Source of the DNA: Candidatus Zambryskiibacteriota bacterium
GTDB taxonomy: Bacteria; Patescibacteriota; Minisyncoccia; Phycocordibacterales; WO2-35-19
Direction of reading: 5' to 3'
Length of the DNA stretch: 64,000 bases
Assembly: GCA_003233455.1 (NCBI GenBank)
Contig: QILQ01000012.1
Coordinates: 4,441 to 68,440, forward strand
Shown here: positions 42,488 to 48,125 of the stretch, piece by piece
How the letters are laid out: the number at the start of each line of letters is the position of its first letter
Numbering within the stretch: the stretch's first letter is position 1
The notes under the pieces: generated by a model
Database searches by the model: none
Told to the model about the DNA's origin: nothing
Seen by the model: only the letters and a program-made list of their open reading frames with translations
Position numbers and translations under genes: made by a program

Positions 42488-43537
42488 TTAAAGTAACTTC
42501 TCTTGTTTTTCTTTTGGAAAATCTATATCCAAATGTTTGTAGGCACGTTTTGTGAGCACCCTTCCTTTTGGTGTACGCTCTAAGAAACCAATTTGGAGCA
42601 AATAAGGTTCATTAAATTCTTCAATAGTTGACTCTTCTTCCGAAAGGGAAGCGGCTAAAGTATTAAGACCAACTGGTCCGCCTCTAAATTTATCAGCAAT
42701 AGTTTTGAGTAGGGCAATATCGGAAAAATTAAGTCCCGCTTTATCTATGCCTAAAAGATTAAAAGCTTCTCGGGCTATATTTTGGTCAATATCTTTTTTT
42801 TGGATTTGGGCATAATCTCTAGCTCTTTTTAAAAGATAATTAGCAGTGCGAGGAGTAAACCTGCTTCTTTCTCCTATGTCCTTTGCCGCCATTTTATCTA
42901 AAGAAACTCCCAAAATATTCGCCGAACGTTTGATTATTTGTATAATTTCATTCGGATTATAAAATTCAAGACGAAAGACGCCACCGGAAAACCTGCTTCG
43001 CAGAGGCGAAGAAAGCATAGCTACCCGAGTAGTGGCTCCTATCAGAGTAAAAGCGGGCAATTCAAGCTGAATAGTTCTGGCACTTGGTCCTTTGCCTATA
43101 ATAATATCTAACAACCCCGACTCCATCGCCGGATAAAGCACTTCCTCAATAGATTTATTTAATCGGTGAATTTCATCTATAAAAAGAATATCTCCTGGAG
43201 AAAGGTTGGTGAGTATAGAAGCCAAGTCTCCTATTTTTTCAATAGCTGGTCCGGAAGTTGAACGCATCTGACTGCTTGTTTCTTTGGCTATAAGATGGGC
43301 TAAAGTAGTTTTGCCAAGACCTGGGGGACCGTAAAATAAGAGGTGTTCCGGCGGATGTCCTCTTTCTCGGGCGGCGTCTAAGAGAATTCTAAGATTTTTT
43401 TTTATATTTTCTTGTCCGATATACTCATCCCATTTAGAAGGTCTTAAGGTTTGGTCTAAAAAATCAAGATTTTCACCTGATACACTATTATGATGAGCGG
43501 GTTTGTTTCCTTTGTTTTTCTTGCTATTTATTGACAT
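42488..43537 (-). CDS. ruvB: Holliday junction branch migration ATPase RuvB
   Basis: GPPGLGKTTLAHLIA, ...ILFIDEIHRL. Confidence 0.9.
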   Translation of the reverse strand: MSINSKKNKGNKPAHHNSVSGENLDFLDQTLRPSKWDEYIGQENIKKNLRILLDAARERGHPPEHLLFYGPPGLGKTTLAHLIAKETSSQMRSTSGPAIEKIGDLASILTNLSPGDILFIDEIHRLNKSIEEVLYPAMESGLLDIIIGKGPSARTIQLELPAFTLIGATTRVAMLSSPLRSRFSGGVFRLEFYNPNEIIQIIKRSANILGVSLDKMAAKDIGERSRFTPRTANYLLKRARDYAQIQKKDIDQNIAREAFNLLGIDKAGLNFSDIALLKTIADKFRGGPVGLNTLAASLSEEESTIEEFNEPYLLQIGFLERTPKGRVLTKRAYKHLDIDFPKEKQEKLL

Positions 43538-43617
43538 ATTTTATCATATATGATATACTCTTTTTGAATTTGAAATGATTGTAGTTTGAATAGAATGTTT
43601 TAATTTGCCTACACACT

Positions 43618-43779
43618 GGAGATACAAATCTCTAAGCGACACCTCGCTTTGGCGCGGTTAGACATTAAATCAAGGAAGAGCTGGTATCGTCTTTCGGGAA
43701 GAACCACTAGCTCTTTCCTCAGAATAATGTTTTGCTTTTTATTTAAATATAGAAAGTGTCGCTTAGAGATTTGTATCCC
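43618..43779. ncRNA. 162-bp element closed by 24-bp terminal inverted repeats with internal bubble and apical stem: 6S-RNA-like sRNA candidate or MITE
   Basis: GGAGATACAAATCTCTAAGCGACAC (43618-43642) vs GTGTCGCTTAGAGATTTGTATCCC (43756-43779); inner stem GGAAGAGCTGGT/ACTAGCTCTTTCC; poorly paired middle. Confidence 0.35.
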
Positions 43780-43862
43780 TAATTTCATTATTCACAAAAC
43801 TCTTGCTTCGGCAATTTATTTTGTGTATAACTTTTTAGGAAAAGTTCTTTGAAACGTTAATT

Positions 43863-44573
43863 GTGTTTCGCTACAGCAGAAAGAATCTTAAAGTAGGATT
43901 TTTCCTGCTGTGGCTAAGTGCAAATAAAGCCAAAACCAAACAGCATATGGAACATGTTTCCAGGAAGATTAAAAGCATGTCTTTTAAATCAGATTTTTCG
44001 TTTGACCAAATTTCTCAGCTTGTGTTTTCCTTGAGGAAAAACGGTTGGGATAAAAAAGATGTCACTAATTTGGGTCAGTGTGGAAAAGGGGGGTCGGCCA
44101 GCATTCGCGATTTTCTTGACGGACAAGCCGAGATTATTCTGATTGAGAAAAAAAATGATCTTGTTCTTTGTGCTGGTGTCGATGGCACCAGTACAGCAAA
44201 AAAAGCACTGAACAACCTTGGTTCTTTGGAGAAATACCTTGATTATGACGTTGTCGCCACCATGTTTCATGGTGGGGATGATGAGGTAAAAGTTCATTTC
44301 TTCAAAGTTGGTCGCAGCATCAGCGACAACGATTTGGAGGAAGAGTATAGATTAAATGGGCTCAAGCCTATTGATCCGTATTCGCTAATTGCCGTCAACA
44401 GAATCTACCCAGCTTTTTCCAAGGAGTATCCTAACGGTACCCATTGGAGAGATTCCAGTGGTATGTGGTGCCACTGTGCCTTCTGTAGCTGGTACAATCA
44501 CCACAGTGTTGTTGTTAACCACAACAACAGCTGGTGGGGTAGTAGTCCTTTTTGGTATGCTGGCTTTCGGTAG
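43863..44573 (+). CDS. Hypothetical protein (possible frameshift near 3' end)
   Basis: 236 aa ORF; last ~50 aa are Trp/His-rich while the overlapping frame 44389..44592 encodes a plausible TM helix. Confidence 0.3.
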   Translation: MFRYSRKNLKVGFFLLWLSANKAKTKQHMEHVSRKIKSMSFKSDFSFDQISQLVFSLRKNGWDKKDVTNLGQCGKGGSASIRDFLDGQAEIILIEKKNDLVLCAGVDGTSTAKKALNNLGSLEKYLDYDVVATMFHGGDDEVKVHFFKVGRSISDNDLEEEYRLNGLKPIDPYSLIAVNRIYPAFSKEYPNGTHWRDSSGMWCHCAFCSWYNHHSVVVNHNNSWWGSSPFWYAGFR

Positions 44574-44635
44574 AGCTGAATCGATTCCCTGAAAATTCGA
44601 AAGGATAAGTAGGGGGATCTGTTTTTTTATTAATT

Positions 44636-46348
44636 TTACTCCTCCAAATCAATTACTCTACCTAATTCATCAATAGAAGTAATGCCTCGCAGGATTTTAA
44701 TGACACCATCTTGCTTCATATTTAAAATATTCTGACTCTCGGCTGCTTTATTTACTTCTCTTTCACTCGGATTTTTATTGACAACTTCTTCTATTTTTTC
44801 ATCTGTTAGTATCGCTTCAAAAATGCCGGTCCTACCTTTAAATCCGGTGAAATTACATTCAGCGCAACCAACAGTTTCAAATATATTTGTAGTATCTAAA
44901 TCTTTTAAATAATTTTTATCTGAAATACTATCTGTGATTTTTTTTATTATTTTATTTTCTTTTTCCCTTAAAACAGCTTTCTTTTTGCATTTATTGCAGA
45001 GCTTTCTTATCAATCTTTGAGCCATAGCTATATTGATAGCTGAAGTAATAACTTTTGAATTTACTCCCAAATCAATCAAACGGGGGAAAGTGCCGGCAGC
45101 GTTGTTGGTATGAAGAGTGGAAAAAACAAGGTGCCCAGTTAAAGCGGCATTAACCGCAATTTCGGCTGTTTCTTCATCGCGAATTTCGCCAACCATAATA
45201 ACATCTGGGTCTTGACGCAACGAACTTCTCAAACCTTCAAGAAAGGTATAGCCTTTTTCTTCTTCCACCTGAGTTTGAACTACGCCTTTTAAATGATATT
45301 CAATCGGGTTTTCTATGGTGATCATTTTTATGCCCGGAGTCTGGATTTTTTTTAAGAAAGCATAAAGAGTGGTAGTCTTGCCACTGCCAGTCGGACCGGT
45401 ATTTAAAACCATCCCGTTTGGTTTTTTAAGTTCATTAGCGATTATATTTAATAGTTTCTTATTTATACCAAGATTTTCCAGAGATACTGAAATAGCGTTT
45501 GGATTTAAAACTCTTAAAACTATTGATTCTCCGTAACCACCAGGCAAAAGGGAGGTTCGGATTTCAATTTCCATATCGCCAAGTTTTATACTAAATCTAC
45601 CATCTTGAGCCTTTTCTTTAATATTTAATTTAAGATTTGAAATAAGTTTGATGCGAGAGAGAAGTAATTCATAAGTAGTATGATCAAGCTCTAGTATGTC
45701 ATTTAAAACTCCGTCCAGTCTATATCTAAGTTTGGCTAATTTTTCTTCCGGTTCAATATGAATATCAGAAGCATTTATAGAAATAGCTCCGGCTAATATT
45801 ATTTCCAGTATTTTTGATATACGATAACTTTTTTTTTGGTTTAAAACTATTTCAATTGATTTTTTTACATCATTAGCACTTTTAACCGATTTTACTAAAT
45901 CTTGAATCTCTTCATTGGCGATATCTAAAGATCCTCCCTTCGTTTCCATTGAATAGGAAAGGTCCTTGTAACGGTTCCAAACTTTTTCTAAACTTTGTTT
46001 GGATGCCATAAATAAAAAAGGAACATATCCTCTATCTTTTAAATCTTCAATCAGGGCGATAGTTTTATTATTATTTGGAGAGATGATGGCTATTGAAACT
46101 TTCTTATTGATAATATTAAAAGGAGCTACTTCTATCTCTCTGGCTTCTTTCTCTTTTATTATACGCAGAGCGTCAATATTGACGGGACTGATTGAAAGAT
46201 CAATATAAGGCAACCTATATTTTTGGGACATCATTTGAGCCAAACCCTCTTCTTCTTGTTCTCTTAGTTCTTTGAGTTTTATTTTTTGTTTATCTTCGTT
46301 GAATTTGATTGACATATATAAATTATAACATACAAAAAAATAACTCAC
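44636..46348 (-). CDS. pilB: Type IV pilus assembly ATPase PilB/GspE family
   Basis: Walker A GPTGSGKTTT, GEIRDEETAEIA, tetracysteine CNKC...CAEC. Confidence 0.85.
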   Translation of the reverse strand: MSYFFVCYNLYMSIKFNEDKQKIKLKELREQEEEGLAQMMSQKYRLPYIDLSISPVNIDALRIIKEKEAREIEVAPFNIINKKVSIAIISPNNNKTIALIEDLKDRGYVPFLFMASKQSLEKVWNRYKDLSYSMETKGGSLDIANEEIQDLVKSVKSANDVKKSIEIVLNQKKSYRISKILEIILAGAISINASDIHIEPEEKLAKLRYRLDGVLNDILELDHTTYELLLSRIKLISNLKLNIKEKAQDGRFSIKLGDMEIEIRTSLLPGGYGESIVLRVLNPNAISVSLENLGINKKLLNIIANELKKPNGMVLNTGPTGSGKTTTLYAFLKKIQTPGIKMITIENPIEYHLKGVVQTQVEEEKGYTFLEGLRSSLRQDPDVIMVGEIRDEETAEIAVNAALTGHLVFSTLHTNNAAGTFPRLIDLGVNSKVITSAINIAMAQRLIRKLCNKCKKKAVLREKENKIIKKITDSISDKNYLKDLDTTNIFETVGCAECNFTGFKGRTGIFEAILTDEKIEEVVNKNPSEREVNKAAESQNILNMKQDGVIKILRGITSIDELGRVIDLEE

Positions 46349-46364: not shown

Positions 46365-46415
46365 CCTCACCCCTCACTCCGTGTAGCCCTCTCCTTAATA
46401 AGGAGAGAGGGGAGA
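46365..46415. repeat. GC-rich palindromic repeat element (CCTCACCCCTCACTCC + CCCTCTCCTTAataAGGAGAGAGGGG)
   Basis: Inverted orientation relative to 23673 copy; intergenic. Confidence 0.6.
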
Positions 46416-46488: not shown

Positions 46489-46517
46489 TTGACTTTTGGT
46501 TTTGACTTTGTTATAAT
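46489..46517 (+). promoter_or_regulatory. Consensus sigma70-type promoter TTGACT-17-TATAAT
   Basis: TTGACT 46489-46494, 17-nt spacer, TATAAT 46512-46517, ~25 nt upstream of ATG 46543. Confidence 0.5.
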
Positions 46518-46542
46518 TCAAATAGAAAGAGAGAGGTGTATT

Positions 46543-47430
46543 ATGAAAACCATTTTCTTGTGTGTTTTTTTGGCCACCATGCTCACCTTTACGATGAGTG
46601 GGTACGGTAGTAATCAGATTACGACGGGTGCTAAAAAGGCTGCCACCGTGGCAACCAAACAGGCGAAAAATGCTCAAAAGGTTGCCTCATCGGCAACCAA
46701 AAGAGCAGCCAAAAAGGTTGCAGAAGCCCGAAGGGCTGCGGTGAATGTCGCAGAAAAACCCAACAGCAAGAAGGCAAAAAAGAGGGCCTCCATTGCCATA
46801 GAGGTTGCGAAGGTAACACTCGAGCAGGCGAAAAATGCTCAAAAGGTTGCCGAGCAAGCTGCTGAACAGGCAAGGCTTGCCAGAGAAGCAGTTGCTGAAT
46901 TCAAGAGAACCGAGTCCCGTGCTCGATGGGAGGCTCAGCAACAGAGATGGAAGAGAAATCTCAATCTCTCATGTCCCGCCGGTGGGTGGGAGAACGTTGT
47001 CATTGAGCCGGAACTCGGAAGGGACTCCTTTCGAGTCAGTGGCAACAGGGTTGCTAGATTTTTGCTGGCTCGGTATATGGGGCTTGTAACAGCCTTCAAT
47101 CCATACCCAGATGTCGTTAATATTGACGAGGGTAGTCGAGCCCTCGTTCGCGACATGTGTCCCAAAGGGAAGATATCCCTGGTGGCCACCTTGGGGTGGG
47201 ACGCTGGGATTCTTGGTGGAGATGATTATGAGGAAGAGGAATTCCTTTGGACTGTTAGCTTGTACAAGAATGGGCACTTGTACAAGGGAAAAAGTCCGCG
47301 TCTACTCCTGTATGTATATCAATGGGTCAAGGAAAAAAAGCCTGCCCCATGGACAATGGAAGTGGACGACATTGATCGTCCTCTCCCCAAACATCTCCCG
47401 GAGCATAGGGAGGGGGGGCAGTGGAGATGA
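46543..47430 (+). CDS. GC-rich secreted Ala/Lys-rich coiled-coil protein (compositionally foreign)
   Basis: Signal peptide MKTIFLCVFLATMLTFTMSG; repeated KKAA/AKNAQKVA segments; GC3-rich codons unlike neighbours. Confidence 0.45.
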   Translation: MKTIFLCVFLATMLTFTMSGYGSNQITTGAKKAATVATKQAKNAQKVASSATKRAAKKVAEARRAAVNVAEKPNSKKAKKRASIAIEVAKVTLEQAKNAQKVAEQAAEQARLAREAVAEFKRTESRARWEAQQQRWKRNLNLSCPAGGWENVVIEPELGRDSFRVSGNRVARFLLARYMGLVTAFNPYPDVVNIDEGSRALVRDMCPKGKISLVATLGWDAGILGGDDYEEEEFLWTVSLYKNGHLYKGKSPRLLLYVYQWVKEKKPAPWTMEVDDIDRPLPKHLPEHREGGQWR

Positions 47431-47630: not shown

Positions 47631-48125
47631 ATGAAAGAATTTTTATCTAAAAATGTAGAAGAAACAGCCAAAATTGCTACTGATTTTGGAAAGCAATTAA
47701 ATAGAATAAACAGAAAGGCACCTTCCGCAAAAGCTACTGTTGTGGGGTTGTATGGAGAATTGGGAAGTGGTAAGACTGCTTTTATGAAATATTTAGCGAA
47801 TTTTTTTGGTATTAAAGAAACTATCCAAAGTCCAACTTATGTAATTATGAAAACTTATAAAACCTCACCCCCCAGCCCCCTCTCCTTAACAAGGAGAGGG
47901 GGAGAAGAAAACTCCCGTTCTCTTGGGAGTGAGGTGTTCCAACATTTAATTCATATTGACGCTTATCGGATAGAAAAAGAAGATGAGATGATAAATTTAG
48001 GTTGGCAAGAAATTATATCTGACCCTAAAAATTTAATTTGTATAGAATGGCCGGAAAATATCTCAGGTATAATGCCTGAGCATACTATGATAAAATTTAA
48101 ACAAAAAATGACGAAAGAAAAATAG
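47631..48125 (+). CDS. tsaE: tRNA threonylcarbamoyladenosine biosynthesis ATPase TsaE with in-frame repeat-element insertion
   Basis: VGLYGELGSGKTAFMKYL...IQSPTYVIMKTY...IHIDAYRI...LICIEWPE; 22-aa insert SPPSPLSLTRRGGEENSRSLGS encoded by repeat. Confidence 0.7.
   Translation: MKEFLSKNVEETAKIATDFGKQLNRINRKAPSAKATVVGLYGELGSGKTAFMKYLANFFGIKETIQSPTYVIMKTYKTSPPSPLSLTRRGGEENSRSLGSEVFQHLIHIDAYRIEKEDEMINLGWQEIISDPKNLICIEWPENISGIMPEHTMIKFKQKMTKEK
47863..47936. repeat. GC-rich composite palindromic repeat element inserted in frame in tsaE
   Basis: CCTCACCCC...CCCCCTCTCCTTaacaAGGAGAGGGGG...ACTCCCgttctcttGGGAGTGAGGTG. Confidence 0.7.

Follow-up and report, generated by a model that had tools for sequence, protein, structure and literature searches.

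Comparative genomics has brought to light clade-specific orphan structured small RNAs (sRNAs), such as those behind Rfam motifs of the Bacteroidales-1, Acido-1 and Chloroflexi-1 type. Correia, RUP and BOX-type elements are bacterial examples of miniature inverted-repeat transposable elements (MITEs). In bacteria of the candidate phyla radiation (CPR), which have tiny genomes, few non-coding RNAs other than the universal ones have been described. Canonical 6S RNA is a rod of 160–200 nt with a closing stem, a large 5' central bulge containing the start of the product RNA, an opposite hairpin on the 3' side, an apical stem and strong synteny (PMC8414754). The element considered here occupies positions 43618–43779 of a 64,000-nt stretch of contig QILQ01000012.1 from a Candidatus Zambryskiibacteriota bacterium (the window; G+C content about 31%) and lies next to the divergently oriented ruvB gene. 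It is very probably a single-copy gene for a structured small RNA whose family is not in Rfam 15. The RNA is kept next to ruvB across Zambryskibacteria- and Campbellbacteria-type Parcubacteria and represents a new, previously undescribed family.

With the clade-specific orphan sRNAs, the element shares its restriction to a lineage, apparently independent transcription, strong covariation and the possession of a promoter and a terminator. Its sequence and fold are different, no Rfam match was obtained, and the literature searched contained no such lineage-specific sRNA in Parcubacteria or the CPR. The small signal recognition particle (SRP) RNA (4.5S; RF00169) is likewise a single-copy, housekeeping, rod-like hairpin with conserved internal loops; however, it carries an invariant GNRA tetraloop and helix-8 loops at its apex, which is the most variable part here, and the present RNA differs by its side hairpins at a four-way junction and by the lack of an Rfam match. 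Retron msr-msd RNA also has paired ends (a1/a2-like) around internal hairpins, one of them long. In contrast to retrons, no reverse transcriptase (RT) gene follows the RNA in most of the loci related to the window (numbered L001 onwards), where pilB or unrelated genes are found instead; the RT of L086/L088 is an RVT_1 of the diversity-generating retroelement (DGR) type, accompanied by bAvd, and is absent from the other loci.

Fold, relatives and covariation

An inverted-repeat search revealed two arms of 22 nt each at 43621–43642 and 43756–43777, which are 100% complementary and 113 nt apart, and folding of the 162 nt extended their pairing out to 43618 and 43779 with one bulge. The 24-bp terminal inverted repeats described in the sequence-only reading of this DNA are therefore real, with 22 perfect pairs at their core. 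Within the 64-kb window, the 22-mer of the arms has two sites only, which are the arms themselves, against none expected in shuffled sequence. The + strand of 43618–43779 folds at −73.9 kcal/mol (z = −10.4; none of 200 shuffles was as stable), and the fold of the − strand is also stable, at −67 kcal/mol (z = −9.4).

The fold is a very stable rod with a four-way junction, composed of the closing stem P1, the variable hairpin P2, a long interrupted arm (P3-P4-P5) and the short hairpin P6. The core of the RNA measures about 160 nt in the window and 120–192 nt among its relatives. P1 is nearly perfect and 23–26 bp long across the family, and in the folds of most members the junction has 2–4 unpaired nt. 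The shortest member, L070 (120 nt), is a nearly continuous duplex rod. The middle third had been described as poorly paired and bubble-like on both sides; this did not hold, as the region forms three further helices (P2, P3 and P6), which are present in both the minimum-free-energy fold and the comparative alignment and covary across relatives, and the longest run predicted to be unpaired amounts to 5–6 nt in the Zambryskibacteria-type RNAs. Repeat search and fold both recovered the apical stem GGAAGAGCUGGU/ACUAGCUCUUUCC; instead of closing a small loop, as had been supposed, it encloses a further variable hairpin of 20 nt.

A 20-mer of the repeat was scanned against one genome each of 185,579 species and gave a single match, in a Candidatus Zambryskibacteria metagenome-assembled genome, directly upstream of that genome's ruvB. 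Further loci were gathered from metagenomic RuvB relatives, from contigs with a RuvB 76–89% identical to that of the window and from contigs around the RuvB kin of the most distant positive locus. Two covariance models, R1 and R2, were built and run on these loci, and revealed exactly one copy per related locus; in every case, it lies on the strand opposite to ruvB, immediately upstream of that gene. When R2 was run with filters off, one copy was found in the 64-kb window. The positive loci have a RuvB at least 62% identical to that of the window (L001–L007, L070 and L082–L102), and to these the Campbellbacteria-type loci L103–L108 are added; together they amount to 18 distinct sequences, without an empty site among them. 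According to their source names (Candidatus Zambryskibacteria, 'Paceibacterota' and Candidatus Campbellbacteria), they belong to two candidate phyla of the Parcubacteria group. Loci L086–L097 stem from groundwater wells at Hainich. Neither model matched in 73 loci with a more distant RuvB (at most about 60% identity), in which the RNA is either absent, located elsewhere in the genome or too diverged. Exact-protein look-ups of the window's RuvB and of the neighbouring open reading frame (ORF) returned nothing on record. The analysis yields a covariance model and exact coordinates for the RNA.

The structure tested for covariation comprised five helices (P1, P2, P3, P4 and P6) with 56 pairs in an alignment of 15 distinct sequences, to which the helix counts below refer unless stated otherwise. 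With the first nine sequences, 15 of the 22 closing-stem pairs had already changed on both sides. In the full alignment, 87.7% of the cells were standard pairs, compared with 37–47% when the 3' partners were slid by 1–3 columns, and double changes were seen at 38 of the 56 pairs, compared with 14–21 upon sliding. None of 500 column shuffles matched the observed value on any of five measures. Extending the set to 18 sequences brought the double changes to 41 of the 56 pairs; L006 alone has four P1 pairs changed on both sides.

P1 is formed by the 5' arm at 43618–43642 and the 3' arm at 43756–43779 of the + strand, which correspond to the left and right terminal inverted repeats and were delimited by fold, repeat search and alignment. 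It shows changes on both sides at 19 of 23 pairs, with 93% of cells paired; G43756 can pair alternatively in P1 or P6. Directly after the 5' arm, the small hairpin P2 (43643–43657, +) was defined by fold and covariation, with double changes at all five of its pairs. Nearly every lineage has its own version of it, in sequence as in length (3 bp in the window, 17 bp in L001), and the hairpin is not evident in L070 or in the Campbellbacteria-type members, which hold a conserved segment of 11–13 nt, CUCGCGAAUUUGG, at the P2 position without a consistent hairpin.

Fold and covariation also support P3, in which AGACAUUA (43660–43667, +) pairs with UAAUGUUU (43725–43732, +) and six of eight pairs show double changes. 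Its equivalents are GGAAUA/UAUUCU in L005 and, in L103 and L108, GGCA/UGUC versus GGUUA/UAAUC. P4 was delimited by the alignment and consists of AGGAAGAGCUGGU (43673–43685, +) and ACUAGCUCUUUCCU (43706–43719, +). Its 5' strand carries a family-wide AGGA plus a G·U-rich CUGG; AGGA/UCCU is nearly invariant, several pairs do not vary at all, and 5 of 12 show double changes. The variable apical hairpin P5 (43686–43705, +), recognised from alignment and folds, has another sequence and length in every lineage, yet folds as a hairpin in each. P6 (CUUUUUAU-loop-AUAGAAAG; 43735–43755, +), placed by fold and covariation directly before the 3' arm of P1, has 86.7% of cells paired, double changes at three of seven pairs and four one-sided G·U exchanges; G·U, G-C and A-U replace each other at three positions, and the hairpin is missing in L070 only. 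In the set of 18 sequences, the nucleotides conserved at 90% or more are almost all helical (A..UCUAA.C and UU..AG.U in P1; AGGA, GG, CU and UC.U in P4), while the loops and the apex vary freely, the apex being the most variable part of the alignment.

A protein-coding function of the region was rejected. The overlapping ORFs at 43649–43852 (+) and 43609–43788 (−) have no Pfam match, and they are not conserved, since in close relatives all six frames are interrupted by stops and the length differs by 1–3 nt.

RNA strand and transcription signals

The + strand is the RNA strand, as the wobble balance, the model scores, the promoter and the terminators agree. Read in the + orientation, the alignment contains 108 G·U versus 31 A·C cells with 15 sequences and 123 versus 32 with 18; in P3, P4 and P6 together the ratio is 72 to 12, and in P4 alone 32 to 6. 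The conserved CUGG...CUGG of P4 can pair on the + strand only. Covariance-model scores were 91–152 bits in the + orientation and 21–70 bits in the reverse one. An RNA on the minus strand, i.e., a ruvB leader, was initially favoured by U-A to U-G changes between the window and L001; this preference was reversed with 9–18 sequences and with the promoter and terminators, and the candidate was rejected.

A near-consensus promoter of the sigma-70 type lies upstream at 43531–43559 (+), with a −35 box TTGACA (43531–43536), a 17-nt spacer ending in TGA (43551–43553) and a −10 box TATACT (43554–43559). It scores 11 out of 12, with the TG in addition, and the single occurrence of its pattern TTGACA-N14-TGNTANNNT in 64 kb compares with an expectation of 0.07; it is the strongest sigma-70-type promoter of the window. 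TTGACA-16/17-TGnTAnnnT was found on the + strand within 200 nt upstream of the RNA in 17 of the 18 loci and further upstream in L003. The Zambryskibacteria-type loci show an overlap between the −35 box and the start codon of ruvB (43531–43537; ATGTCAA on the other strand). The conservation of the promoter is nevertheless not a by-product of the ruvB coding sequence, because it is located 70–200 nt from the ruvB start in L002, L003, L103, L106 and L108 and is well away from it in L007, too. With a start placed about 7 nt after the −10 box, the putative 5' leader would span 43566–43617 (+); between the −10 box and P1, the shortest distance is 6 nt (L086) and the longest 148 nt (L106).

Downstream of the RNA, the repeat search and its conservation pointed to a terminator-like, A+U-rich hairpin, UUAUUCACAAAA...UUUUGUGUAUAA, followed by CUUUUU (43788–43836, +), which is the probable 3' end of the predicted primary transcript. 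This hairpin, followed by CUUUU, is kept in all Zambryskibacteria-type loci. It has the form ATTATTCACAAAA-N~18(...CAAT)-TTTTGTGTATAACTTTT and lies 9–35 nt after the RNA (window, L001, L082, L086, L096, L098, L100 and L101); the stem and the CAAT at the end of the loop are conserved, and the remainder of the loop is variable. The same hairpin also holds an extended −10-like sequence, TGTGTATAAC. In Campbellbacteria-type loci, it is replaced by canonical G+C-rich terminators with U-runs; a canonical G+C-rich hairpin plus U-run follows P1 on the + strand by 5–15 nt in L007, L103 and L108, and in L003, L004 and L005 a U-run comes directly after P1. Promoter and terminators being on one strand, the element is a self-contained + strand transcription unit. 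The more general part of the sequence-only reading, that of an sRNA, is borne out by this structured + strand RNA gene with its own promoter and terminator.

Several points weigh against the reading as an independently acting RNA gene. The column shuffles ignore phylogeny, and 8 of the 18 sequences are close relatives, so that the effective sample is smaller than it appears. P2 and P3 are less well supported than the other helices, with about 76% of cells paired, which is partly due to alignment error in distant members. The transcript, its ends and its abundance are predicted only from the consensus of promoter and terminator; the strand-specific tolerance of G·T could in principle also arise from a single-stranded DNA structure; and the Zambryskibacteria-type RNA is antisense to the spacer of the co-oriented genes pilB and ruvB. 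The conclusion on structure is robust despite the kinship because of the slid-partner control and the compensatory changes in distant members. We conclude that the element is solid as an RNA gene and that its identity as 6S RNA is unproven.

Role of the RNA and competing explanations

According to the mechanism that we propose, the RNA would be read from the + strand off the near-consensus sigma-70-type promoter that overlaps the start of the divergent ruvB, and would be abundantly made and stable. It would probably be trimmed to the base of P1, because leader lengths lie anywhere between 6 and more than 140 nt and a stem of the length of P1 could serve as an RNase III-type processing stalk. 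As a protein-binding particle, the RNA would then probably act in trans by virtue of its fold and not by a single-stranded seed; recognition of the shape by a protein is suggested because nearly all conserved nucleotides are helical and the loops and the apex are free to vary. A role as a stable, abundantly made protein-binding RNA would be the most likely. The strong covariation, the single copy, the best promoter of the window and the conservation across two candidate phyla make it a candidate housekeeping or global-regulatory RNA. As for the partner, RNA polymerase holoenzyme, sequestered as by 6S RNA, is a doubtful candidate; control of the pilB-ruvB region in cis by antisense or promoter interference is improbable; and another protein partner takes the remaining probability.

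6S RNA (SsrS; RF00013) acts as an open-promoter decoy that binds the sigma-70 holoenzyme and is released after a short product RNA has been copied from its 5' central region. Such an identity, as proposed in the sequence-only reading from architecture and length, is unlikely for the present RNA, although a good part of the likeness was retained: the size (120–192 nt), the rod with its long closing stem and the long apical arm. P6, as a 3'-side hairpin adjoining the closing stem, resembles the canonical hairpin opposite the 5' central bulge, and the RNA is single copy with strong synteny, as reported for 6S RNA (PMC8414754). Both RNAs are about 160 nt long and have a strong promoter of the housekeeping type, here the strongest of the window. 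In Campbellbacteria-type members, CUCGCGAAUUUGG would leave some room for a bulge. The literature searched contains no report of 6S RNA for the CPR; '6S RNA' and 'Patescibacteria' are co-mentioned there on mitochondrial SRP only, and a search for structured or non-coding RNAs of Parcubacteria or Patescibacteria gave other subjects only.

The central bubble is the part of the proposal that failed. The large single-stranded bulge of 6S RNA is missing; its place on the 5' side is taken by the P2 hairpin in most members, and P3 shuts the junction and covaries, resulting in a four-way junction. A test for a large open 5' bulge failed accordingly, with a weaker result for the Campbellbacteria-type members and their 11–13-nt segment. 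The short unpaired runs of the Zambryskibacteria-type RNAs and the almost completely paired rod of L070 also speak against 6S RNA, and the closing stem, which is interrupted in 6S RNA, is nearly perfect here. Loop statistics of minimum-free-energy folds did not sharply separate the RNA from E. coli ssrS, and the judgement was therefore based on covariation.

In Rfam 15, no family reached its gathering score in the region. The Rfam models, including RF00013, gave no 6S match at E ≤ 10 on slices of 601 nt, 181 nt and 191 nt or on eight homologous loci, while E. coli ssrS as the positive control scored 139.8 bits with RF00013. The matches obtained at E ≤ 10 were to microRNA-precursor models only; they are explained by the long hairpin and were judged meaningless. 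With covarying helices in place of the supposed bubble, an identity as 6S RNA is unsupported; a 6S-like function is doubtful and is kept in view because of the overall resemblance in size, closing stem, apical arm and 3'-side hairpin. If binding to RNA polymerase is true, the RNA would be a 6S design without an open bubble; if there is no such binding, it would imply that a lineage which has so far not been cultivable on its own has a new RNA-protein system. Its significance would be greater if it were among the most abundant transcripts or bound RNA polymerase or Ruv proteins.

Alternatively, the element may act in cis, setting the expression of ruvB-yebC-ruvC by antisense or promoter interference, or providing a ruvB leader on the minus strand as the functional RNA; we give this explanation a low probability. 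In the first version, the effect would come from transcription off the promoter at the ruvB start and from base pairing with read-through RNA of pilB-ruvB. In Zambryskibacteria-type loci, pilB lies on the ruvB strand, followed by the RNA on the opposite strand, convergent with pilB, and by ruvB-yebC-ruvC; in Campbellbacteria-type loci, pilB has the inverse orientation and comes after the RNA and its terminator. Only the divergent arrangement with ruvB holds throughout the family, even where pilB is inverted, and this invariance favours a cis role, as do the overlap of the −35 box with the ruvB ATG in the close group, the antisense position stated above and the stable fold of the reverse strand. 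However, antisense action alone needs no conserved fold, yet compensatory changes occur at 38–41 of the 56 pairs. The excess of G·U over A·C and the covariance-model scores rule out that the selected RNA is that of the minus strand, the RNA promoter is as far as 70–200 nt from the ruvB start in five loci, and a terminator separates the RNA from pilB in Campbellbacteria-type loci. A cis-acting leader or riboswitch of a downstream gene was rejected as well: the next gene is mostly the convergent pilB, a terminator intervenes where a co-oriented gene follows, and a P1 of 23–26 bp appears too stable for a riboswitch.

It is a long shot that the RNA represents a new class of protein-binding four-way junctions, not kin to 6S RNA, which is tied to ruvB-yebC-ruvC and pilB as a junction-shaped decoy or scaffold for the Holliday-junction machinery or as a regulator of DNA uptake and recombination. 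These Parcubacteria are host-dependent and rely on a DNA-uptake and recombination route.

An action of the element as DNA, in which a cruciform or single-stranded hairpin would serve as a site of recombination, replication or integration beside the Holliday-junction genes, is highly improbable. A long perfect inverted repeat beside ruvB and ruvC would suit such a site, insertions of unrelated genes gather just 3' of the element, and folded single-stranded DNA tolerates G·T wobble as well. The promoter is, however, near-consensus and in fixed orientation, with intrinsic terminators on the same strand, which makes a role at the DNA level unlikely; hypervariable hairpins that stay hairpins within a branched fold are typical of RNA, and no recombinase or replication gene is linked to the element.

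The MITE that the sequence-only reading had offered as an alternative, inserted between ruvB and the next gene, is ruled out, because there is exactly one copy per locus, always at the same place upstream of ruvB: the element is short and non-coding, is bounded like a MITE by long inverted repeats able to fold as a hairpin (22 bp of them perfect), and the DNA just past its 3' end differs between genomes, but it is present once in the 64-kb window, its repeat recurs in only one other species genome, once and at the same locus, the site is identical in 18 diverged lineages and empty in none, the 'repeats' change by compensation and G·U wobble as an RNA helix does, the flanks (...CACACT / TAATTT...) show no target-site duplication, phage and plasmid collections and viral contigs gave no match, and the element has its own promoter and terminator.

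Genes and repeats around the locus

Taken as a whole, the window has the character of a CPR genome. To the left of the element, ruvB, yebC and ruvC follow each other on the minus strand. The divergent neighbour ruvB (42488–43537, −; Pfam RuvB_N, AAA_lid_4 and RuvB_C) is context rather than part of the RNA. Because of the −35 box overlapping the ruvB start, the promoter of ruvB must overlap the promoter or leader of the RNA, or ruvB is read through from pilB; no confident location of a ruvB promoter was found. On the other side of the element, a gene for a T2SSE/PilB-type ATPase is located at 44636–46348 (−).

Genomes differ in the DNA just 3' of the RNA, with unrelated inserted genes in the window, L001 and L086 and with pilB directly adjoining in most other loci. 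In the window, the insertion spot (43780–44635) contains an ORF of 236 aa (43863–44573, +) with neither a Pfam match nor an RT domain and with a C-terminus rich in Trp, His, Cys and Asn; no template-repeat copy of it was found within the window. In L001 (685–2493 and 74–346), L089 and L090, there is a gene of about 601 aa, the C-terminus of which resembles the variable region of a DGR and has an Asn-rich look-alike copy close by, and L086/L088 (1–1756) carry a DGR (RVT_1 plus bAvd) together with a gene of 254 aa. The RNA as a DGR component was considered and rejected, as DGR genes are present in some loci only and the 236-aa ORF lacks a template-repeat copy in the window.

Two further repeat structures were observed. 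An imperfect hairpin with 34-nt arms, 74% complementary, lies at 43857–43927, upstream of or overlapping the start of the 236-aa ORF, and was not seen in the related loci examined. Beyond pilB, two direct repeats of 40 nt (46372–46411 and 47863–47902) are 78% identical, and each forms a palindromic hairpin, CCCTCTCCTTAAnAAGGAGAGnGGG. Between the two lie about 1.5 kb with a raised G+C content of 0.41, compared with about 0.31, and with an ORF of 313 aa (46489–47430) without a Pfam match; the region at 46.4–47.9 kb may be a small inserted island.

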